Below are positions 13,961-59,577 of a stretch of 64,000 nucleotides of DNA, in pieces. The notes beneath the pieces are model-generated. The model worked only from the letters and a program-made list of their open reading frames with translations. It did not search any database and was not told where the DNA came from. The number at the start of each line of letters is the position of its first letter. The stretch's first letter is position 1. The stretch comes from a virus. The stretch lies in IMG/VR virus record IMGVR_UViG_3300005253_000015, positions 32,001 to 96,000 of that record; one strand, written 5' to 3'. A program made the position numbers and the translations under genes.

Positions 13961-14479
13961 ATGGCTAAACTCTACCATTCAAAAGATTATCTAATTAATG
14001 AATATATAAACAATAATAAAGAGATACAAGAGATAGCAAGAGAGAATGGTGTTTGTGATAGTACAATCAGTCGTAGAATGGATAAATTAAAAATTCCGAA
14101 GAGAGGACAGAAAAGAGAGAATCATCCTATGTGGAAGGGTGGTAAATATACAGATATGTATGGTTATGTAAAAATAAAGAATTATAATCATCCAAATGTT
14201 GATAGTGGAAATTATATAGGAGAGCATACTTTAATTATGGAAAAATCAATTGGTAGATATCTAAAACATTATGGAAGAAATAATAAAAATAATGAATTAG
14301 TACATCATATAAATGGTATAAAAAATGATAATAGAATCGAAAATCTTTTTTTATGTAATAATATGTCTCATCATAAAAATATTCATTATAATTTAGAAAA
14401 AGTAGCTTTAAAGTTATATATGGAAGGTAAAATAAAATTTAAGGAAGGAGATTATAAAATTGGTAAAATTGGACTATAA
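13961..14479 (+). CDS. HNH homing endonuclease with HTH
   Basis: HPMWKGG, EHTLIME..IGR, VHHINGIKNDNRIENL. Confidence 0.85.
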   Translation: MAKLYHSKDYLINEYINNNKEIQEIARENGVCDSTISRRMDKLKIPKRGQKRENHPMWKGGKYTDMYGYVKIKNYNHPNVDSGNYIGEHTLIMEKSIGRYLKHYGRNNKNNELVHHINGIKNDNRIENLFLCNNMSHHKNIHYNLEKVALKLYMEGKIKFKEGDYKIGKIGL

Positions 14480-14882
14480 TAGGTGTCTTGTTTGTGAATG
14501 CAGAGGTTTATGTTGTTATTTTTCAACTTTAATAGATGGCAAACATAATATAATTTTAGACGACCATCCATGTACTTTTTTGAATATTGATACTGGTTTA
14601 TGCAAACAATACAAAAATAGAAAGGAAGTATTCGAGAATTGTATAAGTGTCGAAGATGCTAAAAAGATAGGGGGTCTACCAGAAGGCTGTCTTCATTTAA
14701 AGAAAGATGGGATATATCCTTATCCACCAAAACGGAAATTAAGGGAAGATGATAATGAACGAATTAAAGTACGAACTGCGTTTGTAAATGCGATGTCTCA
14801 TAAAAACTTCCAAGAATATATACCCGATTTTATGAAACCATTATCAGACGAACTAAAAAAAATACCAGAAAAAGATATATAA
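14460..14882 (+). CDS. YkgJ/YcgN-like CxxCxxCC cysteine-cluster protein
   Basis: CLVCECRGLCC, PCTFL..TGLC.QY.NR, LPEGC; TTG start. Confidence 0.75.
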   Translation: MVKLDYNRCLVCECRGLCCYFSTLIDGKHNIILDDHPCTFLNIDTGLCKQYKNRKEVFENCISVEDAKKIGGLPEGCLHLKKDGIYPYPPKRKLREDDNERIKVRTAFVNAMSHKNFQEYIPDFMKPLSDELKKIPEKDI

Positions 14883-18405: not shown

Positions 18406-21400
18406 ATGGCTGGTAAAGGTTCAAAACAACTTGTTCGGGAACTCATTAATTTCTATAAGGTAAATAGAGGTGGATATCCATACGAGATTATTTATAAATT
18501 AATCCAACTCTATCAAGTAATAGAAGATGTATACTCCGTCTCCACTGTGATAGAACTCCAAGAAGCTATTGATAATATAGGAACTGATGCTGGTACTATT
18601 TTTATAGCTTCTGGAACTTATGATGTCACTACAACAATAGATATTGATAATTGTGGTTCACTTGTTATATATGGGCATGGAGACAATACAATTCTTAAAG
18701 CCGCTGATGGTATTACGATATTTAATATAACATGTGTTGCTTCTTGTCTAATAAAGACATTAAAATTGGATATTACTAACTATACGGGAGATACTCAAGC
18801 CGTTTTAATTAATGAAACTAATAATAATATTGTTGGTTTTGAAGATGTATCTATTCTTGGAGCAGCGGCAAATGGTATAGGCATTGAAGTTCAATCCGAT
18901 AACTGTTATATTGACCAATGTAATATACTACAAATGAAAACGGGCATTTATTTGAATGGAGCTGAGAAAACAAAAATAACTGGAACTCTCTCTGGTCTTC
19001 ATGTTAATTACGGGCTTCATTTAAATCAAGCAGATTTTAGTATTATTACTGGAAATTCTTTTACTGCTAATACTTCTTATGGTATATATATTTATAATAG
19101 TGATTATTGTATTATTTCCAATACTGGATGTACGAGTAATCTTACTGGAATGTATTCGGATATTTCAAATTATAATACAATATCATCATGTTTATCTAAT
19201 AGTAATTCGGAAAATGGTATATTTATAACTCAAGGCAATTATAATACAATATCAAGTAATACATTAAACAACAATGACTCTAATATAGCTGGTAATACTG
19301 CTGGATTATATATCACTAATAACTCTGATTTTAATACTATAACTGCTAACTCTATTAATAATAACAATAATTCTGGTGCTGGTACTGCTTACGGTATCTA
19401 TATTGCTACAGCTGATTGTGATGAGAATGTAGTTGCCTCTAATAATGCTAACGGGAATGATGTAGATTATCAAGACTCTGGAACATCCACAACTGTAATA
19501 TATTATGTTCAAAATAGTGATGAGCTTCAAGACGCAATAGACTCTATTGGTTCTAGTGCTGGGACAATATACATTAATTCTAGCTTTACTGTATCAACTA
19601 CTATTGATATTGATGGTGGTGGAAGCTATCTTATCGAAGGCGAAGGTAGTAATACAGTTTTAACTACTGGTATTGATATAAAATGTTTGAATGTAGACCT
19701 AGCTCGTCAATGTATATTACGGAACTTCAGAATTGACGCTAGTGCGTATACTGCTGCTGGTGTGGCACTGGAAATAATAGATGTTAATGAGAATAATAAT
19801 GATTTAGTTATATTAGATAATGTATCTATTACTGGAGATGGTACTAATGGATACGGAATTGAATTAAATTCTAACAATTGTAGGATTGAAAATTGTGAGA
19901 TAGATAATATAAGTATCGGTATTAATATTTTATCAACTAATAATATAATCTCTGGTAATAATGTTAATAACTGTAATACATATGGGATTCAAATAAGCTC
20001 AGCTAATACTAACAATGTAACAACAAACATCGTAGATAGCAACACAACTGGTATATATTTATCATCATCTGATTATGTTTTAGTAAGTGGGAATTCAGTA
20101 AACACTAATACTGAAAACGGTATAGAGCTCACTGGTAGTGATTATACTAATATTAGTGGGAATTCATGTATAGGGAATGATTCAAGTACAGCAAATCCTC
20201 AAGCTGGAATGTATATAAGCACAGACTCTAACAATAATAGTATTATTGGAAACACTATTATCAATAATAATAATGCTGGTGCTGGAATTGGATACGGAGT
20301 ATATATAGGAACAGCTACTTGTGATGAGAATATAGTTCGCTCTAATAATATTTCTGGAAATGATACACAGTGGGGTGATACTGGTACTAATACTCAAATA
20401 GAATATTTCTGTCTAACTGAGGGTCATATACAAGATGCTGTAGATTCTATAGCTGGTAAGGCTGGTACGATAATTATTGGAGAGGTTACCATTGCTATTA
20501 CAACTGGCATAACTGTAGATAATGCTACCGCAAAGATACGCATTATTGGGAAAGGACAACCATCTATATTACAACCAACTATTGGTATCACAGTATTTAC
20601 ATTTACAAATGCTTATGAGCTTCATTTAGAAGCCTTTTATATAGATATGGATAATTATACAGCAGATACTACAAAAGCAATATTCAATAATGGTGCTAAT
20701 TGTTTAAGACAAACTTACGAAGATATAACATTCGAGGGAACAGCTGATGGGATTGCGATATATAATTCTGGTGATTCTATTACTGTTAATAATTGTTATT
20801 TTAACAATGTATTTAATTGTATATACATTACGGGTTCTGTTGTAGCTTTTAAAATCACTGGTAACGAATTCTGGACTATTAGAGATAGTTCTGTTTATAT
20901 TGATTATGGTGAACAAGGTGTTATTGCCAATAATATAGCTGATGCTACTGGTGGTAAACCCGTTATAGATGTAATTCGAGGTAAATATATATCTATATCA
21001 AATAATCAAATCATTACGGGTGGAAGTACAGCTACTAATGGTTCATCAATACAAATAACTGGTGCTGTTGCCAGTAGTGATATTCAGATAGTAGGTAATA
21101 CCATCAGAAGTACAAATTCAAGTGGCACTACTAATAGTATGGTATACATGAGTGGTACTGTTTCTCGAATAACAATATCTTCTAATGTAATCATTTCCTA
21201 TACTAATAGTGATGATTCTTGGGGTATAATAATAGAGGATGCTACAGTTATAGATTGTACTATCACTGGGAATAGTATTTATGCTTTCGGGGGTATTAAA
21301 GTAGTAAATGCTGATAATATGGTTATCTCTGGGAACAAAATTACTGGTAATACTTCTTTAAAACAATCTGGTATATTATTAGAAGGGTCAATTGGAAATG

Positions 21401-21867
21401 CAATAACATCAAATATTATTGATGGAGTATCTGTTAACTTTGGTACGGATGTCAATGGGATATCATTAACTTCCGTATCGACTGATAATATTATTGCGAA
21501 CAATCGAATACTTGATATGGCTAATGCGGGAGCTGGAGATGGTTATGGAATAATTATAGCTGCGGGATGTAATAATAATGTTATATCTGGAAATGTAATT
21601 ACGAGTTGTGATACTAACTTGTCTGATGCGGGGACTGGAACTATATTATTTGGCGATGATACTGCCTACGGAGCTGGTTGGAACGGGGACTTAGGCACTC
21701 CGACCAAGAATGTTATATATGACCAATTTGTAGCTACTTTAGCTGCTGCTGTTGCTTTAATATCTGATACTGCTTATGCGGCAAGTTGGGATGGAGTCAC
21801 TACAATTGCTCCGAGTAAGAATGCTGTATATGATAAAATACAAGCTCTTATTGCTGTATGGGGTTAA
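18406..21867 (+). CDS. Large spike protein with three tandem beta-helix (NosD/PbH1-like) domains
   Basis: Three (L/I)Q(E/D)A(I/V)D.I...AGTI caps, N/I/G-rich repeats, C-terminal APSKNAVYDKI motif. Confidence 0.85.
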   Translation: MAGKGSKQLVRELINFYKVNRGGYPYEIIYKLIQLYQVIEDVYSVSTVIELQEAIDNIGTDAGTIFIASGTYDVTTTIDIDNCGSLVIYGHGDNTILKAADGITIFNITCVASCLIKTLKLDITNYTGDTQAVLINETNNNIVGFEDVSILGAAANGIGIEVQSDNCYIDQCNILQMKTGIYLNGAEKTKITGTLSGLHVNYGLHLNQADFSIITGNSFTANTSYGIYIYNSDYCIISNTGCTSNLTGMYSDISNYNTISSCLSNSNSENGIFITQGNYNTISSNTLNNNDSNIAGNTAGLYITNNSDFNTITANSINNNNNSGAGTAYGIYIATADCDENVVASNNANGNDVDYQDSGTSTTVIYYVQNSDELQDAIDSIGSSAGTIYINSSFTVSTTIDIDGGGSYLIEGEGSNTVLTTGIDIKCLNVDLARQCILRNFRIDASAYTAAGVALEIIDVNENNNDLVILDNVSITGDGTNGYGIELNSNNCRIENCEIDNISIGINILSTNNIISGNNVNNCNTYGIQISSANTNNVTTNIVDSNTTGIYLSSSDYVLVSGNSVNTNTENGIELTGSDYTNISGNSCIGNDSSTANPQAGMYISTDSNNNSIIGNTIINNNNAGAGIGYGVYIGTATCDENIVRSNNISGNDTQWGDTGTNTQIEYFCLTEGHIQDAVDSIAGKAGTIIIGEVTIAITTGITVDNATAKIRIIGKGQPSILQPTIGITVFTFTNAYELHLEAFYIDMDNYTADTTKAIFNNGANCLRQTYEDITFEGTADGIAIYNSGDSITVNNCYFNNVFNCIYITGSVVAFKITGNEFWTIRDSSVYIDYGEQGVIANNIADATGGKPVIDVIRGKYISISNNQIITGGSTATNGSSIQITGAVASSDIQIVGNTIRSTNSSGTTNSMVYMSGTVSRITISSNVIISYTNSDDSWGIIIEDATVIDCTITGNSIYAFGGIKVVNADNMVISGNKITGNTSLKQSGILLEGSIGNAITSNIIDGVSVNFGTDVNGISLTSVSTDNIIANNRILDMANAGAGDGYGIIIAAGCNNNVISGNVITSCDTNLSDAGTGTILFGDDTAYGAGWNGDLGTPTKNVIYDQFVATLAAAVALISDTAYAASWDGVTTIAPSKNAVYDKIQALIAVWG

Positions 21868-21924
21868 GAGTTATATTTATTAATTTAATATCTATTTTAT
21901 AATATATAAAACTAGGTTGAAAAT
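21814..21924 (+). repeat. Inverted repeat, left copy (108/111 identical to 29457..29567)
   Basis: Manual alignment, includes the non-coding spacer. Confidence 0.9.
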
Positions 21925-22845
21925 ATGAAGAAAATAGAGTTTAAAAGACAGTTTTTTATAAAAGATTTATTCATACCTGAAAGAGTTATTAATTGTTTTA
22001 ATTGTATTGAATTTGAATCTTATCAAATATTTAGTTATTGTATTGAGAATGATTTGTTTATAATCCCAGAGAATGGGTTTATATTTATACCAATAAAGAG
22101 TATATCTGATTATAAAAGTATGGTTAAGATATTTAACGAAACTAATATATGTAATAATAGCTATTTATATTTAATAATAGAAGAACAATCCCTTCTTGAT
22201 GCGGTACTTTCCACTATTGTAGATAAAAGGTTTAGTATTTTAATCACTAAAGATTTAAAAATAGATTTTGTTAAGTACTGGAATAATACAATTGGAAAAG
22301 AATGGATTTCTAAAAACAGAATCATTAAAAAGATAAAAATAGACTATCCTAATTATGATAGACAAATTAATGAAATGATTAGTATATTCAATGAGGAATT
22401 TATAAGATTTTTCTTATTAGATTTTGATTATGTATCATTTGAAAAGATAAAAATAGAAGAGATACACAAACTAAAATTCTGGATACGTAATTTTATTGGC
22501 TGGACAAAATTAAAAGATGTTGATTCAATAGAAATCATATCAACTCCATTTGTTAGAAAGATTTTTGTTTCTGATGAGTTGGTCTTATATATGGATAATA
22601 AGAAAAAAGACATATGGTCATTTGATTTAATGTTATATTTAAAAGACGATGGAGAAAGTATGCCAATGAGAGAGCTCAATCTTCTTAGGAAATATATTGA
22701 CTTTGTACCAAATGCTATGTACACAGAATCTAAAATAACAAATTGGTTTTTAATGGATTATGCTCAATGTAAAGAAATTCAGGGAAGTTTAAATGAAATA
22801 CCATTAATGATGGGATTAATAAATAGGTGGTTATATGATTTTTAA
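21925..22845 (+). CDS. Radical-SAM-associated protein, possibly a degenerate rSAM barrel lacking CxxxCxxC
   Basis: Overlaps the rSAM gene; F..F.LDFDY...IEEI segment resembles the rSAM C-half. Confidence 0.5.
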   Translation: MKKIEFKRQFFIKDLFIPERVINCFNCIEFESYQIFSYCIENDLFIIPENGFIFIPIKSISDYKSMVKIFNETNICNNSYLYLIIEEQSLLDAVLSTIVDKRFSILITKDLKIDFVKYWNNTIGKEWISKNRIIKKIKIDYPNYDRQINEMISIFNEEFIRFFLLDFDYVSFEKIKIEEIHKLKFWIRNFIGWTKLKDVDSIEIISTPFVRKIFVSDELVLYMDNKKKDIWSFDLMLYLKDDGESMPMRELNLLRKYIDFVPNAMYTESKITNWFLMDYAQCKEIQGSLNEIPLMMGLINRWLYDF

Positions 22846-24010
22846 TGTTGTGTGTCCAGATATTTTGATTTCAACAAATTGTAATATGAGATGTAAGTAT
22901 TGTTTTGAGAAGGATAAAATTAACGAGGTTATGGATGAAGAAAGAATATTAGAATATTATTCACATAATCCCTGTACAGGAACATTTCCTATTGGTGGTG
23001 AACCTTTTCTAAATTTAGATTTACTCTTCAAAATAATGGATACAGTAGAAAATAATAAAATTATACAAGAGAAAAGAAAAAAAACGTTATTACAGAATTT
23101 AAAATGTGTTATTACTAATGGAACTTTAATTAAACAAAACATACAGAAGATTAAGGATTATGGATTAATATTACAGATAAGTTTCGATGGTTCTAAAAAA
23201 GTTCATGATACTTATAGGGTTTTTCCTAATGGAAAGGGAACGTATGATAAAATCATTGAAGGATTAGAACTTTGCGTAAAAGAAGGAATTGAATGGTCTA
23301 TTCATGGTGTTGTAGCTAAAGATACTATTAAATATTTCTATGATACGTTTGTATGGTTTTTTGAGATATATAAAAAATACAAAGAATTAGATATAGCAAT
23401 AGATTTTATGAAGAATAACGTATTTCAAGTAATATTCGAACAAGATTATTCTGATAAAGATGTTGATGAACTAGTCAGACAGTTTCATAAAATTGCTGAA
23501 TGGATTTATTCAAGAGATTATATGACTATTAAACAAAAAGACCAATTATTTCATAACTTCTTAGAAAGACGTGGTGGTGTTTGTTCAGCTGGAACAACAT
23601 TAATAGCTTTTGATAATAATTTAGATATGTTTCCATGTCATAGACTTGCTGTTGTACCAGAGAAAGAAAATTATTACCTAGGAAATGCTATGGATATTAA
23701 GACTATTAAAAATTTCAAACAATATAACTCTTACTATAATATTGGGAGAGGTTATAAATACATGTATTCAGCTATACAACATAACCACGATTACAAAGAC
23801 AAGGAGAGTTTGAGATGGTTTATGTGGTGTCCTGCTACAAATTTACAAACATCTGAAAATGTTTATTATCAGAATGCTAAATATAATGTGATGTTTGTTG
23901 AAGTAAATAGAATGGTTAGAGCACTTAAGAAAATATATTATCAAAATAGTGATTTAATAAAAGAAAAGGATAATGCCAATAAGCTCAGGAAGCCCGATAC
24001 TAGCAAGTGA
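22835..24010 (+). CDS. Radical SAM/SPASM-family enzyme (anSME/peptide-maturase-like)
   Basis: CNMRCKYC, GGEP, TNGTL, ISFDG..HD.YR..NGKGTY, CSAG...FPCHR, CPA. Confidence 0.92.
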   Translation: MIFNVVCPDILISTNCNMRCKYCFEKDKINEVMDEERILEYYSHNPCTGTFPIGGEPFLNLDLLFKIMDTVENNKIIQEKRKKTLLQNLKCVITNGTLIKQNIQKIKDYGLILQISFDGSKKVHDTYRVFPNGKGTYDKIIEGLELCVKEGIEWSIHGVVAKDTIKYFYDTFVWFFEIYKKYKELDIAIDFMKNNVFQVIFEQDYSDKDVDELVRQFHKIAEWIYSRDYMTIKQKDQLFHNFLERRGGVCSAGTTLIAFDNNLDMFPCHRLAVVPEKENYYLGNAMDIKTIKNFKQYNSYYNIGRGYKYMYSAIQHNHDYKDKESLRWFMWCPATNLQTSENVYYQNAKYNVMFVEVNRMVRALKKIYYQNSDLIKEKDNANKLRKPDTSK

Positions 24011-24749
24011 TGTAAATGCTATTATCGCTAAGATAAATTCAGAGGAAAATAATAGAACTGGGTTAGGTCTGTCTGATTTACCAGATATGATTGTTAGTAA
24101 TCCTTGTTTGGCTTCAGACCACGATTCTTGGAGAACTCGTAATGATGCTATTAATGCTTTTCATTGTTATTGTGAAGCAGATGGAGGGCGTGATGCTGGT
24201 GATACTACTAAGACAGGTACAACATTAGGTCTAACTGCTCCTAATGTTACTTCTGGTAATTCAATGTTAGCTTCTCAACTTACAACTTTAGAAACAGATA
24301 TAGATAATTTAGTAGCTCAATGTGATTGTGATACTTATGTTTGTAGTTGTGTAGGTAATTGTACTACTGTTTGTACTTGTAATACAAATGTATGTACTTG
24401 TGTAGGTAATTGTACTAGTGTCTGTTCTTGTAATACTAATGTTTGTACTTGTGTTTCCCAATGTGGTTGTAATACTAATGTATGTACTTGTGTAAGTCAA
24501 GGGTGTGCCTGTAATACTATTAGAACACCTGAATGTCTTGATTGGACATTCATATGTGGTTGCCAAAGTCAGGGGTGTAGTTGTAATCAATTATGTACTT
24601 GCGTAAATCAAGGCTGTGGTTGTAATCAATTGTGTACATGTGTAAGCAATGTGATTGCACAGTGTACTTGTAATCAATTGTGTACATGTGTAAGTAATGT
24701 GATTGCACAGTGTACTTGTAATAAAGTCTGTGGGTGTGAATATAACTAA
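23973..24749 (+). CDS. Cys-rich CxC-repeat protein, candidate rSAM substrate
   Basis: 18 CxC motifs (39 Cys) in the C-terminal ~143 aa; N-terminal G..(I/M)LAS repeats. Confidence 0.85.
   Translation: MPISSGSPILASDVNAIIAKINSEENNRTGLGLSDLPDMIVSNPCLASDHDSWRTRNDAINAFHCYCEADGGRDAGDTTKTGTTLGLTAPNVTSGNSMLASQLTTLETDIDNLVAQCDCDTYVCSCVGNCTTVCTCNTNVCTCVGNCTSVCSCNTNVCTCVSQCGCNTNVCTCVSQGCACNTIRTPECLDWTFICGCQSQGCSCNQLCTCVNQGCGCNQLCTCVSNVIAQCTCNQLCTCVSNVIAQCTCNKVCGCEYN
24621..24722 (+). repeat. 48-bp tandem duplication inside the Cys-rich gene
   Basis: CNQLCTCVSNVIAQCT x2, one nt mismatch. Confidence 0.85.
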
Positions 24750-25165
24750 TGGTAGATAAAGAAACTTATTGGAAGAAAGTTAATTTTATAGTAGATACTT
24801 CCATCTTTATTAGAAACGGAGCTTGTAATCGTTGTGGTAAATGTTGTTATGCGTATGATGAAGAACATCCCCCAGAAGAGGGAATAAAAGTTCCATGTAC
24901 TAAATTAAGTTATGATGGTGCTTTAGCAATATGTGGAATTCAAGAAAATAAATATCAAATCTGTAAAGATAATCCGATTTATCCTACACCATGTATGGTT
25001 TCAGAAGCTGTTGATACTTGTGGATATTCTTGGGTAGTTGATAATAGTTTAACAAAAACAAAAGCATTGGATAAGTTTAATATTATATGTGATGTTTGTC
25101 ATAGAAAAGAACCATGTACTTATTACGATAAAATAGTTAATGAAATAAATGAGGTGTGTAAATAA
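24749..25165 (+). CDS. YkgJ-like CxxCxxCC (Fe-S/Zn) protein
   Basis: CNRCGKCC, PCTKL, CGI..K.QIC..P, CGY; TAATG coupling. Confidence 0.8.
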   Translation: MVDKETYWKKVNFIVDTSIFIRNGACNRCGKCCYAYDEEHPPEEGIKVPCTKLSYDGALAICGIQENKYQICKDNPIYPTPCMVSEAVDTCGYSWVVDNSLTKTKALDKFNIICDVCHRKEPCTYYDKIVNEINEVCK

Positions 25166-29455: not shown

Positions 29456-29456
29456 T

Positions 29457-29567
29457 ATTTTTAACCTAGTTTTATATATTATAAAATAGATATTAAATTA
29501 ATAAATATAACTATTAACCCCATACAGCAATAAGAGCTTGTATTTTATCATAAACAGCATTCTTACT
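29457..29567 (-). repeat. Inverted repeat, right copy
   Basis: Reverse complement of 21814..21924 with 3 mismatches. Confidence 0.9.
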
Positions 29568-32408
29568 GGGAGCGATTGTAGTCACCCCATTCCAAGAGGC
29601 AGCATAAGCAGTATTAGAAGGAGCAGTATGTAGAGCAGTAACTTGTGCTGCTGTTAAGTGTTGTTCATTAACATTTCCATTGGGAAGTGTAATACTATCG
29701 TGTGTTAAATCTCCCCCTACAGTAGCAGCATGGTCTCTTGCCGCAATATCAACTCCGTCTACAGTTCCACTAACAGTTATATTACCAGTTATATCTAGAC
29801 TTGCTACTCCAGCACCACTATTATTAATCGAAAAAACAGTAGCACCAGCATTCACCATGTCTATAGATATACTCCCAGTAGTTGCAAAAGCAAAAGCTCC
29901 ACCATTGCTATTAATACCATCAAATTGTAATGTATCTCCATCATGAACATGAGCTACGGGGGCTGGTTGTGCTTGAAAGCTTGGGGCTGCTGCGACACCA
30001 TTCCCAATCAGTATTGTTGCTGCTGCTCCAGTCGCTATTTCAGTCATAACACCAGCTCCATTAGTACAATATACCTTCCAATTATTAACTGCTGTAGGCA
30101 TATTTGTGATACTAAGAGCAGATACATCAACGCCATCAACAGTCTCAGCTCCAGCCATCGTAATATTAACGCCATTCATTTGTAGACCACCTGTTATTAC
30201 TAAGGCATTAGCTTCTATATAAGCATGTGCCTCTGCGTCAGTATATTTTTGACCAAAAGCCATAGCATCTTGAGCCGCAGAACCATTACCAAGACCAGTT
30301 ATTTTAGAAGTTCCCATAACGATTGGAATACCCATTGTTAATTCAGTGGCAGTCATAGTCATTTTAGCAGAATTATTAATTCTAAAAACAACACTTTGAC
30401 CAGTAGCAGCATTCAATAAAGTAAGTCCAGTAGCATTTTGTGCTAAAGCATAATTAGTTCCAGATAACATATCTCTATGACTAAAAACCATCCAATCAGC
30501 AGTCGTACTTCCTAATGCTGCTCTTCCAAAAGTAAAGGTTAAATCCTCATCGGCAGAAGTAATAACTTGAGTGCCGTGAAGGGTCATACCAGCCGAGTTG
30601 ATTAGCGGAGTGTAATTATCCCCGACAGTATAATTAGGGTCTTCCTTCTCTCCATAAGCATCTAAATAAAAATAATCAGTAGAATCTCCAAAACATTTAA
30701 TATGTATTCTATTTACACCAGAAACCATATTATCATCAGTAGAGACATTATTGGCTTCTAATACATCATTTACATATATATCTTGAGTGTTATCTGCTCT
30801 CCATACTAACTGAACATGATATAAAATATTATTTGAAACAACAATAAGAGCAACCCACGCAGCTCCGTTATAATAATCCATACTACTTGCTGTTATACGG
30901 AGGCGATTTATATAACCGACGCCTCCTTCAAAAGTATAAAACTCCCAATATTTTGTTACATCATTAGTTCCAATCCAGAATTCATGAGTTCCACTTGTAG
31001 CCTGAGTTATGCTATGATATATGGTTGGATCTTCTCCTCCAGTAGCATCATCTTGTAATCGTAATACTTTTTTATGACCTTGCCATTCATCAACAATAAT
31101 ACATTCTCCATCATAGAGAGTTGCTGCATCTATAAATGGTATATCTGTACCTTCCGTACCTACAGGCACATCCTTAAAATTATATGTAGCCCAGAATATT
31201 CCAGCTTCAATCCCACCTTTTATATTTCCTATGCTCTTTATATCGTTTCCATCCATAACAATATTGCCACTCATCTGTCCGCCAGTAAGGGGTAGCATTA
31301 AGTCTGCATATTCCTTTACTGTAGTATTTGTAGGAACTTTTACATCACTGTTAGCTAATGCGGCAATATCGCCCAACGTAGTTATAGTAGCCCCAGTACC
31401 TATTTTTATACTTGATTTAACGGTTAATATTCCACCTGTGGTAAGACTCATAGCACCATCATTTTGGGCATCATCAGAATCTCTCCAAACAAATCCTCTA
31501 TCAGCATCAGGGTTCATAGTAAAGGTCATAGCCCAGTCATTAAGTCCTCCATAGGTCATAGCACTATGCATACCAATAGTATAAACACTCAAATTATATA
31601 CTCTAAGTTTGTCGTAATCTGATTCGGCTCGAGTTGATATTCTATTAACATTGTTGATATCATAAAAACCCATATCAATATCACCATTCATAGTATCCCC
31701 AACAAGTTTAAGATAAACATCTGCTGCCGCTATTGCTGCAACAGCTTCAGCATCTGTATAGACTGCATGAAGTGCAGCCACTTGAGCAGCAGAAATATGT
31801 TCATAGACAGTACCAGCATTTATATTAGCTAAGTCATTATGATTTAAATCTCCTGCTACTGTCGCAGTATGATGTGCAGTAGCAACCCCTGTATGAGTGG
31901 ATATTAAAGCATCTATTGCAATATCAATAGTACCAGCGGGATTAGTATTTTGCACAACAATTCTTGCATCTACTTCTGCATCAGTGTATTTAGCATGATG
32001 GTCTCCAGCTATTGCTTTATGTGTTGCTATTAGTGAATCTATAGCATTATCTATGGATTGACCATCTACTATTTCTGCTATAATAATAGTTTCTACTTCT
32101 GTAGTTGTGCTATTAGCATCTATTAATATATCCATTGCAGCTATCTTGTCATAAACAGCATTTTGACTTGGAGCATGTGTAGTGTCTCCATTCCAACCAA
32201 CTCCATAGACATCATCCTCTATTAATGCTACGGCAGCAGCGGCTATTGATTCGATTTTGTCATATACAGCATTCTTGCTGGGTGCTACATCAGTAATAGC
32301 ATTCCAAGCAGCAGCATATACATCATCGGATATTAATTCGTCAATAGCCTTAATTATCTCGATGTCTACATTCTCATTTAGCATAAGTCGTCTAAAATTA
32401 TTACTCAT
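29514..32408 (-). CDS. Long mosaic fibre/spike protein with a central lectin-like domain
   Basis: APS.NAVYDKI motifs at both ends, His-rich fibre repeats, G.M.G.I.M repeats, ConA-like insert. Confidence 0.85.
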   Translation of the reverse strand: MSNNFRRLMLNENVDIEIIKAIDELISDDVYAAAWNAITDVAPSKNAVYDKIESIAAAAVALIEDDVYGVGWNGDTTHAPSQNAVYDKIAAMDILIDANSTTTEVETIIIAEIVDGQSIDNAIDSLIATHKAIAGDHHAKYTDAEVDARIVVQNTNPAGTIDIAIDALISTHTGVATAHHTATVAGDLNHNDLANINAGTVYEHISAAQVAALHAVYTDAEAVAAIAAADVYLKLVGDTMNGDIDMGFYDINNVNRISTRAESDYDKLRVYNLSVYTIGMHSAMTYGGLNDWAMTFTMNPDADRGFVWRDSDDAQNDGAMSLTTGGILTVKSSIKIGTGATITTLGDIAALANSDVKVPTNTTVKEYADLMLPLTGGQMSGNIVMDGNDIKSIGNIKGGIEAGIFWATYNFKDVPVGTEGTDIPFIDAATLYDGECIIVDEWQGHKKVLRLQDDATGGEDPTIYHSITQATSGTHEFWIGTNDVTKYWEFYTFEGGVGYINRLRITASSMDYYNGAAWVALIVVSNNILYHVQLVWRADNTQDIYVNDVLEANNVSTDDNMVSGVNRIHIKCFGDSTDYFYLDAYGEKEDPNYTVGDNYTPLINSAGMTLHGTQVITSADEDLTFTFGRAALGSTTADWMVFSHRDMLSGTNYALAQNATGLTLLNAATGQSVVFRINNSAKMTMTATELTMGIPIVMGTSKITGLGNGSAAQDAMAFGQKYTDAEAHAYIEANALVITGGLQMNGVNITMAGAETVDGVDVSALSITNMPTAVNNWKVYCTNGAGVMTEIATGAAATILIGNGVAAAPSFQAQPAPVAHVHDGDTLQFDGINSNGGAFAFATTGSISIDMVNAGATVFSINNSGAGVASLDITGNITVSGTVDGVDIAARDHAATVGGDLTHDSITLPNGNVNEQHLTAAQVTALHTAPSNTAYAASWNGVTTIAPSKNAVYDKIQALIAVWG

Positions 32409-34690: not shown

Positions 34691-35304
34691 AATAGATAAC
34701 CTCCCTCTTTTTTTAAATATTCTACTGCTTTAATTAATATTAATGGATTATCATTTGATAAACCTATTACTGAGTTACATTTAGCACATAATAATCCTCT
34801 TACTAATACTTTATTATTATAACTAAAATTATGGTTATGGTCAATGGTAAATTTCCTTCCATTATTATTTGATGTACCACAAATAGCACATCTTTCTTTT
34901 TGTATATTTAATATAGCCTCATAATCTTCTAAAGTCATATTATAATATCTTTTCAAATTAGCTTTTCGTAGATATCCTCTAAATTTATCTTTATTTTCAC
35001 TCCTGATTTCGCCTCTCCGTTTCTTTATTCTCTCTTTATTTTTATGATAATATCTATTATATGTTGATTTTGTCTGCTCCCTATGATGATTAATATATTC
35101 TCTTTCTCTTTTTAGAAATCTTTCTATATTGTTCTTACGATGCTCTTTAAGATATTTATTACGACACTTCTTACAACGTGAAGCGAAACCACCCTTTCTT
35201 GATTTATCACTATGAAAGTATTCTACTGTTAATGGTAGATTTCTGTTACACCCCGTACACAGTCTTGTTTTTATATCATCAATACATACTTTTACTCTTA
35301 TCAT
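34687..35304 (-). CDS. Endonuclease VII-family homing endonuclease
   Basis: YNMTLEDY...Q..RCAICG, IDHNH, VRGLLCAKCN..IG..NDNP..L.KA.EYL. Confidence 0.9.
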   Translation of the reverse strand: MIRVKVCIDDIKTRLCTGCNRNLPLTVEYFHSDKSRKGGFASRCKKCRNKYLKEHRKNNIERFLKREREYINHHREQTKSTYNRYYHKNKERIKKRRGEIRSENKDKFRGYLRKANLKRYYNMTLEDYEAILNIQKERCAICGTSNNNGRKFTIDHNHNFSYNNKVLVRGLLCAKCNSVIGLSNDNPLILIKAVEYLKKEGGYLF

Positions 35305-35549
35305 CTAATCATCTCCCGTGTAATATATTTTATTTTTATATTTTCATCTTTTACCCTCTCTTGCCATGTTACCCAAAGGTTCTTATTTAACCCATATGAT
35401 AGATTTTTTAATTCCACTTCTTTTTCTTTAGTTAAATATACACATTTCTCTCCACATACGTGACAGAGAGTAAAATAAAAATCACTCTTATCTGGAATTG
35501 TTAATGTAAGAAAATCACAATTTGGACATTTTTTCATTATCATTATCAA
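35301..35549 (-). CDS. Zinc-ribbon protein
   Basis: CPNC...CHVC. Confidence 0.65.
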   Translation of the reverse strand: MIMIMKKCPNCDFLTLTIPDKSDFYFTLCHVCGEKCVYLTKEKEVELKNLSYGLNKNLWVTWQERVKDENIKIKYITREMIR

Positions 35550-35554
35550 TAGTC

Positions 35555-35905
35555 TTAATCATCTCTCACTAATTCTTTAAAATATCTATTTATAAAATTG
35601 ATATAGCTTTCAAGATAGCTATGTTTTCTACCAGATTTAGCTCTTCTAATTATAATATCGTATATAGGGAAGTCTTTTTCATACATAGAACGCAGTTTCA
35701 TATAGACCTTATTTGAATCAATCTCTATCTTTCTTTCCATTAATGCCATTTTTTCAAGTCTTTCATTCTCTTCCCTATCTCTTTCCCTAAGCTTTCTTTT
35801 TATTTCATCAGTATATGCTTTAGTCTTTTCTATAGCCAAGCCAATAGGTATGATTTTAGGTTGTTTCTTAGATTTACCCAAGCTACCGAAGTCAAATTCT
35901 GGCAT
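35555..35905 (-). CDS. Hypothetical protein
   Basis: 116 aa, coupled to upstream ORF. Confidence 0.6.
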   Translation of the reverse strand: MPEFDFGSLGKSKKQPKIIPIGLAIEKTKAYTDEIKRKLRERDREENERLEKMALMERKIEIDSNKVYMKLRSMYEKDFPIYDIIIRRAKSGRKHSYLESYINFINRYFKELVRDD

Positions 35906-53927: not shown

Positions 53928-54002
53928 TTGCGGATATTCGATTTGAACGAATAACTTCGAGATTATGGGTCTCGTGGCATAACCAGATTAGCCTAATCCG
54001 CA
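53928..54002 (-). tRNA. tRNA with CAT anticodon (Met, initiator-like, or Ile2); no encoded CCA
   Basis: TGCGGAT/ATCCGCA acceptor, GGC/GCC D stem, CGAGA-CCCATAA-TCTCG, ATTCG-TTCAAAT-CGAAT, A73. Confidence 0.9.
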
Positions 54003-58371: not shown

Positions 58372-58519
58372 TGATGCTATAGCGTCTCTGGAAGAGGCAT
58401 ATAAAAGATTAGCTGAGAAATATAAAATTGTTATAAAGACTCTGGACTTGATTGGAAGTAAATTAACTGAAATACAAAAAATTATACCAGAAACTATAAG
58501 TGAGTTAATGGAATTATGA
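58343..58519 (+). CDS. Small coiled-coil protein
   Basis: MPENKRK...; overlaps the ERCC4 start. Confidence 0.5.
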   Translation: MPENKRKTSSDAIASLEEAYKRLAEKYKIVIKTLDLIGSKLTEIQKIIPETISELMEL

Positions 58520-59577
58520 CTGACCAGAAATTAGCAATATTAGAAGTAAAGGTAGATGTCCGTGAACCAGATGATACTCTCGAAAAAGTTTTAACATTTT
58601 GTCCGTTAGCTAAAAGAGAGCAGCTGGAGATTGGTGATATCGTCTATAAACATGTTGCTATAGAACTTAAATCTTGGGTTGATTTCATTAATGCCTTTAC
58701 ATCTAGGAGTGATGATAGATATAGAAGGCAATTATATAATTTTCTTATCAATAAGGAAATTGAAGGTTATTATGTTATTTATGGGGATTGGGAAGAAATT
58801 AATGATTACTCTCATGTAAAAATGACAGCTGTATTAGGAGCAATTGCTTCAATCCAAGCCCGTTATGGTATGAGATTAATGATTTTACCTAATAAGGATT
58901 ATGCTATCTATACTTCTCTTAAAATAATTGAGAAGACATTTGACCATAAAGATGTTAGACCAGTTGTTTATAAAGTTGGCACGGATGAGAGGGCTATAGA
59001 TATGCTCGTTGCTGCTGGTAATCGTATTGGTAGTAGTGATGCCATTAGATTACTTAGCCATTTCAAGACAGCTAAAAATGTAGTGAATGCCACATCTAAA
59101 CAATTACAAGAAGTTAAAAAGGTTGGTAAGGTTAAGGCTGATAATTTAATAAAAACATTTAATTATGATTTTAAAGCTAAAAAAGATTTCGAAGATAATA
59201 TGAACGATTTATCAGAGGAAGCTCCAAAAAAAGAGGAGAAAGTAGAGAAAAAAGCTCCTAAAAGAAAACCGCCTATAAATAGAGTTATAGAAGAGGCAAT
59301 ACCAATTGATGTAGAAATGGATATAGATATTATTGATATTGAGGCTGATAGGGTAGACTTCATAAAAGAGCATTATAAAGATTTTGATAAGCAGAAAAGG
59401 CTTGTTATGGAAGCTATAGACATGTATACTAAGAAAATAAAAAAGCCAGTTCCTTTAGCAAATCTAGTTAGTGCTCTTCCAACGATTGGTAAGGAAAGAG
59501 TATTTGAGGTAATACAAGATTTAATTAGAGAGTCTATGATATATGAGGCTGAAAAGGATAAATATGAAGCATTCTAA
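58516..59577 (+). CDS. ERCC4/XPF(Hef)-family structure-specific nuclease with HhH and C-terminal winged helix
   Basis: VDVRE, LEIGD, IELKS..DF, RQL; HhH L.EVKKVGKVKA. Confidence 0.9.
   Translation: MTDQKLAILEVKVDVREPDDTLEKVLTFCPLAKREQLEIGDIVYKHVAIELKSWVDFINAFTSRSDDRYRRQLYNFLINKEIEGYYVIYGDWEEINDYSHVKMTAVLGAIASIQARYGMRLMILPNKDYAIYTSLKIIEKTFDHKDVRPVVYKVGTDERAIDMLVAAGNRIGSSDAIRLLSHFKTAKNVVNATSKQLQEVKKVGKVKADNLIKTFNYDFKAKKDFEDNMNDLSEEAPKKEEKVEKKAPKRKPPINRVIEEAIPIDVEMDIDIIDIEADRVDFIKEHYKDFDKQKRLVMEAIDMYTKKIKKPVPLANLVSALPTIGKERVFEVIQDLIRESMIYEAEKDKYEAF

Follow-up and report, generated by a model that had tools for sequence, protein, structure and literature searches.

A viral radical-SAM cassette next to a spike gene as a putative system for thioether stapling of a cysteine-repeat protein

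Results and discussion

The window analyzed here comprises 64,000 nucleotides of DNA from an uncultivated virus, bases 32001-96000 of the complete, 111,456-bp IMG/VR record IMGVR_UViG_3300005253_000015, which has direct terminal repeats. Behind the gene for a 1153-aa spike-like protein it carries a cassette of four genes, encoding a partner protein without an iron-sulfur motif, a radical S-adenosylmethionine (SAM) enzyme, a cysteine-repeat protein and a small CxxCxxCC protein (Table 1). By analogy with characterized maturases we propose that this cassette is a virus-encoded protein-maturation system that staples the Cys-repeat protein through thioethers, and we put the probability of this reading at roughly 0.55. 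Its description as a candidate enzyme-substrate cassette for cysteine cross-linking is well supported by the comparisons given below; from these we infer the identity of the substrate, the thioether chemistry, the roles of the helper proteins and a location in the virion.

The four open reading frames (ORFs), all on the plus strand, overlap by 11, 38 and 1 nt and therefore probably form one operon. An initial annotation of this DNA, made from the letters alone, had described four coupled genes after the spike, a partner devoid of CxxxCxxC, the density of Cys and CxC in the tail of the third protein together with its growth by tandem duplication, and a CxxCxxCC motif in the fourth. All of these statements were borne out.

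Table 1. Features of the cassette and its surroundings in the window, and gene order at related loci
Feature	Position	Strand	Basis or remarks
1153-aa beta-helix spike-like protein	18406..21867	+	Pfam NosD 6.9e-37, Beta_helix 2e-34
306-aa partner, TIM-barrel-like alpha/beta core, without Fe-S motif or family	21925..22845	+	AlphaFold2 model; no family match
391-aa radical-SAM enzyme, predicted single AuxI-type auxiliary-cluster site	22835..24010	+	PF04055, 55.2 bits
258-aa Cys-repeat protein	23973..24749	+	ORF; 42 Cys
Conserved N-terminal domain of Cys-repeat protein, residues 1-122	23973..24338	+	Family profile search
Cys-repeat tail, presumed substrate region	24321..24749	+	39 Cys, 18 CxC, central non-repeat loop NTIRTPECLDWTFI, end CGCEYN
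138-aa CxxCxxCC cysteine-cluster protein (YkgJ/YcgN-like), putative optional accessory	24749..25165	+	C26-C33 motif
163-nt inverted repeat	arms 21763..21925 and 29456..29618		Repeat search, 92% complementary
964-aa second spike-like protein	29514..32408	-	C-terminal repeat motif common to 1153-aa spike
G003 (L003), 99.5 kb			fibre - partner - rSAM - Cys - two CxxCxxCC - two sulfotransferases - likely gp25/W - Baseplate_J
L005			partner - rSAM - CxxCxxCC - Cys protein (>449 aa, 102 Cys)
G002 (L009)			788-aa fibre - partner - rSAM - Cys - 406-aa protein
L010, 16-kb contig			rSAM - Cys - sulfotransferase - likely gp25/W - large protein like the Baseplate_J protein of L003
G001 (L011/L013/L022)			fibre - rSAM - Cys - GT2 - partner - second small rSAM - DXD glycosyltransferase
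rSAM, radical-SAM gene; Cys, Cys-repeat gene; GT2, glycosyltransferase of the GT2 type.

A radical-SAM enzyme with a single predicted auxiliary cluster

The enzyme clears the cut-off of the Radical_SAM model PF04055 (29.5 bits), its CxxxCxxC motif is formed by C16, C20 and C23, and it is the single radical-SAM enzyme encoded by this genome. In a collection of 5.8 billion proteins it falls within a clade of 40 clusters (30-73% identity, E<=1e-50) that is clearly set apart: beyond it, scores drop to about 1e-11, the level of generic maturases. C20 and C23 are invariant in 40/40 clade sequences, as is C16 except in two that are truncated at the N-terminus. Downstream of the radical-SAM core only C250, C268 and C332 are conserved throughout the clade (40/40; C147 is present in 33/40). 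The full seven-Cys SPASM motif (CX9-15GX4C ... CX2CX5CX3C ... C), which would provide two auxiliary clusters, is lacking in the enzyme, and the SPASM model PF13186 is recorded for 0/40 clade members; the earlier description of the domain as a partial SPASM was therefore right.

When a profile of six orthologs was compared with the PDB, CteB was the best match (6e-27) and anSME the second (3e-21), while SkfB matched weakly (1.8e-5) and solely within the radical-SAM core. C250 and C268 align with a C-x17-C pair ('C...PCH') of CteB that, by this spacing, presumably represents C344 and C362, which are among the ligands of auxiliary cluster 1 (AC1) in that enzyme (PMC10177961). The invariance and spacing of C332 make it the likely counterpart of the third AC1 ligand, CteB C413. 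Homology to CteB ends at residue 399 of the latter, just short of cysteines 400, 403 and 409 of auxiliary cluster 2 (AC2). Judged from these alignments, the viral enzyme retains just the three-Cys AuxI site, and the second SPASM cluster is absent. A selenium-substituted substrate of PapB binds an Fe-S cluster that has been assigned to AC1 in the homolog Tte1186 (PMC10177961), and AuxI is needed for the activity of CrpC, whereas AuxII merely raises it and is not strictly needed (PMC13692751). The CxxxCxxC motif of the viral enzyme is preceded by just 15 residues, so that there is no room for an N-terminal recognition element (RRE) of the kind that binds peptides made by the ribosome and modified after translation (RiPPs).

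Among NCBIfam families the best match of the enzyme is PapB (NF047865; 111.7 bits, E 4e-32, cut-off 340). Further matches are those to the CXXX-repeat maturase TIGR04115 (79.4 bits, E 3.5e-22, cut-off 350), to the CrpC family TIGR04463 (rSAM_vs_C_rich; 49.6 bits, 2.5e-13, covering residues 13-163 only, cut-off 525) and to QhpD (TIGR03906; 45 bits, 5e-12, cut-off 453), all of them below the respective cut-off. The same applies to DynA (1.5e-19), CefB (7.5e-18), CcpM (1.3e-16) and the anSME and SCIFF maturase families (about 1e-15 each). A nif11-like maturase is also found among the nearest families, and some sources label relatives of the enzyme 'AslB'. The closest relatives, PapB and CteB, are both Cys-thioether maturases, which supports the initial annotation, where thioether cross-linking had been named as one activity of SPASM enzymes.

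The cysteine-repeat protein founds a family with hypervariable tails

The presumed substrate contains 39 of its 42 cysteines within the last 143 residues, and 18 of its 19 CxC motifs are located there, arranged as nine CxC on either side of the unique loop NTIRTPECLDWTFI. The DNA encoding the repeats contains tandem duplications of a 51-nt unit (2.5 copies at 87%) and of a 48-nt unit (2.1 copies at 98%). No signal peptide was found in the protein.

A profile of the first 122 residues, searched against 1.84 billion representatives at E<=1e-3, finds 46 proteins. One of these, P0057, was discarded as a low-complexity false match; the other 45 are real members, all with Cys after the domain and nearly all with a Cys-rich tail. 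On this basis about 45 clusters at 50% identity make up a family without annotation, of which the Cys-repeat protein is the founding member. The protein and 38 relatives match no family in Pfam, NCBIfam or PHROG, and a comparison of these 39 members with the NCBIfam target models gave 0 matches. Likewise, the CXXX-repeat target model TIGR04114 (an 18-position repeat model with a cut-off of 20 bits) has no match at E<=10 in G000, G001, G002 and G003. The N-terminal domain of about 120 residues is conserved and in nearly all members contains the motifs ITA.DIN.II.KIN.E...R, INA.HCYCE.D and DID.L.AQC.CD.Y. A viral Atlas cluster labelled PF27846 (tSAM_targ_Cxxx_rpt) is structurally near this domain (template modelling score 0.62) and provides a lead only. 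The tails, on the other hand, range from 32 to more than 330 residues, have a Cys content of 17-33% and defy alignment from one member to another; CxC, CCNGQ and CSNNT repeats occur. The family shares a conserved C-terminal end, C.C[ND].VC.CE[YF](N/GG), and both this extreme end and the N-domain are better conserved than the 'core' of the tail. An N-terminal extension is present in only 1/46 members (P0027), and fusion to a long fibre in none. The 176-aa extension of P0027 appeared lectin-like by eye, but matched no Pfam family and was set aside.

In 43 family tails Asp, Glu, Asn or Gln occupies position +3 from Cys in 61% of cases as opposed to 27% in shuffled sequences (z=28), and one of these residues stands directly after CxC in 111/126 motifs (88%) of the window protein and four homologs. 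Such C-x-x-[D/E/N/Q] repeats resemble the C-X-X-Q/D sites of CrpA, discussed below.

At the N-terminus, repeated LAS segments had initially been noted and likened to fibre-attachment segments. Three '(I/M/C)LAS' segments do exist (residues 9-12, 45-48 and 98-101), and the motif occurs nowhere else in the genome; the second segment, however, is not kept in homologs. A role in fibre attachment is supported neither by the genome, in which the segments have no paralog, nor by a low-confidence structural model, which contains three helices only.

Enzyme, partner and target persist together across viral loci

Six independent loci were compared: the window, G003/L003, L005, G002/L009, L010 and G001/L011+L022 (L013 also belongs to G001). 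The Cys-family gene lies next to an ortholog of the radical-SAM gene in 6/6 loci with readable context, which upholds the reading of the genes as a conserved functional unit; homologs that do not co-occur with radical-SAM genes had been named in the initial annotation as a finding that would refute it. The partner is present in 5/5 loci that are not cut at that point. It is situated directly 5' of a radical-SAM gene in the window, L003, L009 and G001, its upstream start being cut in L005, and L003 has the same overlapping layout as the window. Gene order and accessory genes vary from locus to locus, whereas enzyme, partner and target stay together as a trio (Table 1). The CxxCxxCC gene occurs in 3/6 cassettes; the surroundings of the cassette in L009, L010 and G001 showed none.

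In 4/4 loci with upstream DNA, the gene immediately upstream of the cassette encodes a fibre or spike, and in L003 and L010 the cassette is followed by Baseplate_J and by a gene that, from its sequence, is likely of the gp25/W type. Sulfotransferase genes (L003 10828-11481 and 12165-12848; L010 2230-2937) and, in G001, glycosyltransferase genes of the GT2 and DXD types (L011 11777-12583, L022 73-747) are found beside the Cys-repeat gene, so the Cys-repeat protein or the adjoining fibres may carry further modifications. In G001 a second, smaller radical-SAM gene (L022 1039-1827, minus strand) is coupled directly downstream of the partner gene; second matches to PF04055 also occur in G002 (35279-35677) and G003 (3708-4154). 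The contig L010 (JAZGFO010000215.1) was binned to a Saprospiraceae metagenome-assembled genome. It is probably viral or proviral, and the bin label is therefore not reliable evidence for a host. Matches to the C-terminal DNA pattern in L012, L015 and L016 were dismissed as chance hits.

The partner and the CxxCxxCC protein

The partner has 11 close homologs, and in 12 homologs just C39 and C76 are invariant. It matches nothing in Pfam, NCBIfam or PHROG; BLASTP revealed no sequence similarity to the neighbouring radical-SAM enzyme, a family profile found nothing in the PDB, and a search of viral contigs with the partner alignment found nothing either. In the AlphaFold2 model, for which the predicted local distance difference test score (pLDDT) is 67.7, residues 27-195 form a beta/alpha core. 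A Foldseek search with this model returned nothing at E<=1e-3. From the modelled fold it is plausible that the partner is a helper derived from a radical-SAM enzyme that has no cluster of its own. The associated protein of the CXXX-repeat system, TIGR04116, has no match in the cassette; a sub-threshold match in G001 was dropped because it is distant from the cassette and no Cys target is in its vicinity.

In the 138-residue protein the cysteine motif reads C26-x2-C29-x2-C32-C33. Its homologs in L003 reach 22.7 and 15.2 bits on PF03692 (cut-off 23), and homologs match YcgN models (NF0035xx) at 1.5e-5 to 7e-3, far under the cut-offs; the window's own copy matches neither PF03692 nor the YcgN models. 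A second small Cys-cluster protein is encoded elsewhere in the window (14460-14882, plus strand; 140 aa, 9 Cys, 'CECRGLCC', faint PF03692 match at E 0.137) and aligns in part with the CxxCxxCC protein of the cassette.

Proposed mechanism

In the proposed reaction cycle the enzyme would cleave SAM at its CxxxCxxC cluster, while a Cys thiolate of the substrate would be bound at the open iron of the single auxiliary cluster held by C250, C268 and C332. Hydrogen-atom abstraction at an acceptor side chain close by would then yield a thioether between the Cys sulfur and carbon, i.e. a linkage of the ranthionine type, and many rounds of this cycle would take place along the tail with its C-x-x-[D/E/N/Q] repeats. 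The conserved N-domain could serve as a handle for recognition or assembly, and the cluster-less partner could help without taking part in catalysis, by presenting the substrate or stabilizing the enzyme. The CxxCxxCC protein would be a dispensable metal or Fe-S accessory, which may conduct electrons in place of the missing second SPASM cluster. The predicted product is a whole, heavily stapled and hypervariable protein rather than an exported peptide, and it would work together with the neighbouring spike or fibre proteins.

Several observations weigh against thioether stapling of a virion protein. No named maturase family has a curated cut-off that the enzyme reaches, and its chemistry is therefore proposed by analogy. 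In the window protein taken alone, CxC is followed by Asp, Glu, Asn or Gln in just 11/18 motifs and by Val in 7/18; Asn or Val comes after CxC in near-alternation. Homolog P0003 mostly has one Cys per repeat, from which it follows that CxC itself is not essential. The AlphaFold2 model of the Cys-repeat protein (pLDDT 37) is uninformative, with three helices in the N-domain and an unstructured tail, and the best structural matches of the partner model, PqqE (Z 8.9) and TigE (Z 8.1), are tied with generic TIM barrels; BlsE, DesII, SkfB and CteB are likewise level with unrelated TIM barrels. Gene order, the sole basis for placing the Cys-repeat protein in the virion, suggests such an association, but fibre loci are well-known hot spots for unrelated cargo genes. 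Finally, neither Baseplate_J nor the baseplate protein of L003 has a recognizable counterpart in the window's own genome.

Alternative explanations

The strongest competitor is a role in metal binding, which we consider unlikely. The tail would then be a ladder for metal or Fe-S clusters, comparable to metallothionein or a rubredoxin knuckle, in which paired CxC motifs form tetra-Cys sites and the other genes handle metal or clusters, or both functions would coexist. A CxC tail of 25-31% Cys with few basic residues and, in most homologs, abundant Asp and Glu fits this picture (the acidic residues are scarce in the window's copy), as does the arrangement of two blocks of nine CxC around a loop whose motif 'RTP.CLDWTF' recurs in homolog P0016. 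The cassette also encodes a CxxCxxCC protein of the 'zinc- or iron-chelating' kind, and the CrpA gene cluster of Methanococcus voltae is upregulated on pyrite, which led its authors to suggest metal binding (PMC13692751). Metal binding, however, requires no dedicated radical-SAM enzyme, and the relatives of the one found here are cross-linking maturases. In addition, the single-Cys repeats of P0003 and the CCNGQ repeats of P0046 and P0056 break a four-Cys geometry, and 3/6 cassettes have no CxxCxxCC gene beside them.

Release of a RiPP-like product appears a little less probable again. Here the N-domain would act as a long leader of the NHLP/Nif11 type and the tail would be cut off as a toxin, signal or host-surface effector. 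The protein does have a leader-plus-core layout with a hypervariable 'core' as in many RiPP families, and RiPP maturases, the nif11-like one among them, come nearest to the enzyme. Yet the flanks of the cassette in the six loci showed no gene for a protease, a transporter or immunity, and the protein lacks a signal peptide. The N-domain and the extreme C-terminal end are the most conserved parts, tails exceed 330 residues, and the position of the genes after fibre genes is fixed. It is improbable that the enzyme acts elsewhere, be it on the beta-helix spike, on a sulfatase-type target with conversion of Cys to formylglycine or on viral DNA as in thymidine hypermodification, and that the Cys-repeat protein is a mere neighbour. 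Such a role could be read from the rank of anSME as the second-best solved relative, from the name 'AslB' given to some relatives, from the sulfotransferases near the cassette in L003 and L010 and from the known part of phage radical-SAM enzymes in DNA hypermodification (PMC8989533). Against this, the link between the enzyme and Cys-repeat genes survives rearrangement across distantly related or unrelated virus backbones in which the spike and fibre neighbours differ, and no sulfatase gene was seen, nor any gene for DNA modification next to the cassette.

Thioether stapling remains our preferred reading. Metallation of the protein, a position at the fibre tip and a benefit under anoxic conditions, all suggested initially, are more speculative. 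Its wider form is distinctly more tentative, though possible: several unrelated lineages of uncultivated viruses would make a host-contact or fibre-associated protein whose hypervariable Cys ladder is stapled by a minimal, AuxI-only radical-SAM enzyme, combining hardening without disulfides with diversification of repeats.

Genomic surroundings

The cassette starts 57 nt after the end of the 1153-aa spike ORF, and the intervening spacer is AT-rich. The last 100 residues of the spike recur in the convergent 964-aa spike-like protein (phmmer, 7.5e-31), which has no match in Pfam, PHROG or NCBIfam. The two genes are connected by the 163-nt inverted repeat, which brackets 7.5 kb containing the cassette. 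Each arm covers the last ~105 nt of one of the spike-like genes and the same ~58-nt downstream spacer: the left arm spans the 3' end of the 1153-aa spike gene and the whole 57-nt spacer up to the start codon of the partner, and the right arm overlies the 3' end of the 964-aa gene. The repeat may mark an invertible or exchangeable segment, or the two genes may have a C-terminal domain and a terminator or promoter in common.

Elsewhere in the window, a 353-aa protein (58516-59577, plus strand) matches ERCC4 nuclease, helix-hairpin-helix and MCM C-terminal winged-helix models, an archaeal-looking combination of the Hef/XPF type that hints at an archaeal host. An HNH endonuclease (13961-14479, plus strand; PHROG 7545 at 1e-19) lies within the presumed structural region, and there is one tRNA-Met (CAT) gene (53928-54002, minus strand). 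Ten further large ORFs of the virus yielded just an AAA ATPase and an RVT_3 match in Pfam.

Comparison with known systems

QhpD is a radical-SAM/SPASM enzyme that introduces Cys-to-Asp/Glu thioethers into the structural subunit QhpC instead of a released peptide. In that case, other than in the viral one, three cross-links are formed in an enzyme subunit without repeats, and the system is cellular. By sequence, the maturases closest to the viral enzyme are PapB, acting on PapA (freyrasin), and CteB/Tte1186 (SCIFF). PapB forms repeated Cys-to-Asp/Glu thioethers at CX3D and SCIFF maturases form Cys-to-Thr thioethers, the substrate Cys or Sec binding to AC1 (PMC10177961). PapB and CteB act on short peptides and have both auxiliary clusters, whereas the viral enzyme is devoid of all four AC2 cysteines. 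SkfB, a radical-SAM enzyme with a Twitch domain and a single auxiliary cluster, still forms a thioether (PMC6231123); the ligand pattern of the viral enzyme is that of a SPASM AuxI site, unlike that of SkfB and other Twitch-domain enzymes.

Enzymatic thioether stapling of a whole protein has been shown only recently, in one methanogen system. CrpC of M. voltae installs ranthionine cross-links at C-X-X-Q/D on CrpA, a Cys-repeat protein of 28.8 kDa, as demonstrated by mass spectrometry (PMC13692751). As in the viral cassette, the radical-SAM gene adjoins that of a large protein (~29 kDa) with a C-terminal, Cys-rich tandem repeat; CrpA is engaged through its N-terminal part, the yield increases with a third protein and an AuxI site with three Cys ligands is required. 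In contrast to the viral enzyme CrpC has an N-terminal RRE and a two-cluster SPASM domain, and the Crp system is cellular, while the viral target differs in its N-domain, its conserved C-terminal end and its fibre-gene context. The Crp target and helper were compared with the viral proteins by their published description. A protein annotated 'periplasmic copper-binding protein' is reported to adjoin the Crp cluster (PMC13692751). This is the Pfam name of the NosD beta-helix family that is matched by the viral spike. The NosD-type neighbour of both loci may be a coincidence, or Crp-like systems may also serve surface beta-helix proteins. The initial statement that no example of such a system is characterized is thus outdated for the chemistry, given CrpA/CrpC, but holds for viruses in the literature searched, where no paper on a virus-encoded radical-SAM and Cys-repeat system was found.

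The older, in-silico CXXX-repeat system (target TIGR04114, maturase TIGR04115, associated protein TIGR04116; PF27846) follows the same logic of a Cys-repeat protein, a radical-SAM enzyme and a helper. Similarly, the gp180-gp185 cassette of Erwinia phage Asesino combines Cys-repeat proteins, radical-SAM enzymes and a helper beside tail-fibre genes, as in the viral cassette described here. Asesino differs in having two active radical-SAM enzymes, one with a Cys-rich C-terminal region that, read by eye, resembles the full SPASM motif. The repeat in the window is C-x-C-[DEN]-x-x and not CXXX, and its family is almost always a stand-alone protein. Direct homology to the Asesino cassette was considered and, at the sensitivity of these comparisons, rejected: hhalign gave a probability of 0.1 for the partner against gp182 and of 0.4 for the Cys family against gp185, and hidden Markov models of the cassette proteins hit only the two radical-SAM enzymes of Asesino, in a generic manner. 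With no detectable homology of the Asesino helper or target, the viral cassette is therefore analogous and not orthologous.

If viruses do staple a particle or host-contact protein in this way, the cassette would reveal a new principle of virion construction and the first structural protein of any virus particle that is cross-linked by a radical-SAM enzyme. The enzyme itself, compact and working with one auxiliary cluster, would be useful for dissecting the roles of SPASM clusters, and the tails would represent a natural library of hypervariable stapled scaffolds. As both the target and the partner family are unannotated, naming them would improve the annotation of viral metagenomes. In the system of the window, the target and the partner each belong to a new family, and the enzyme is a reduced one.

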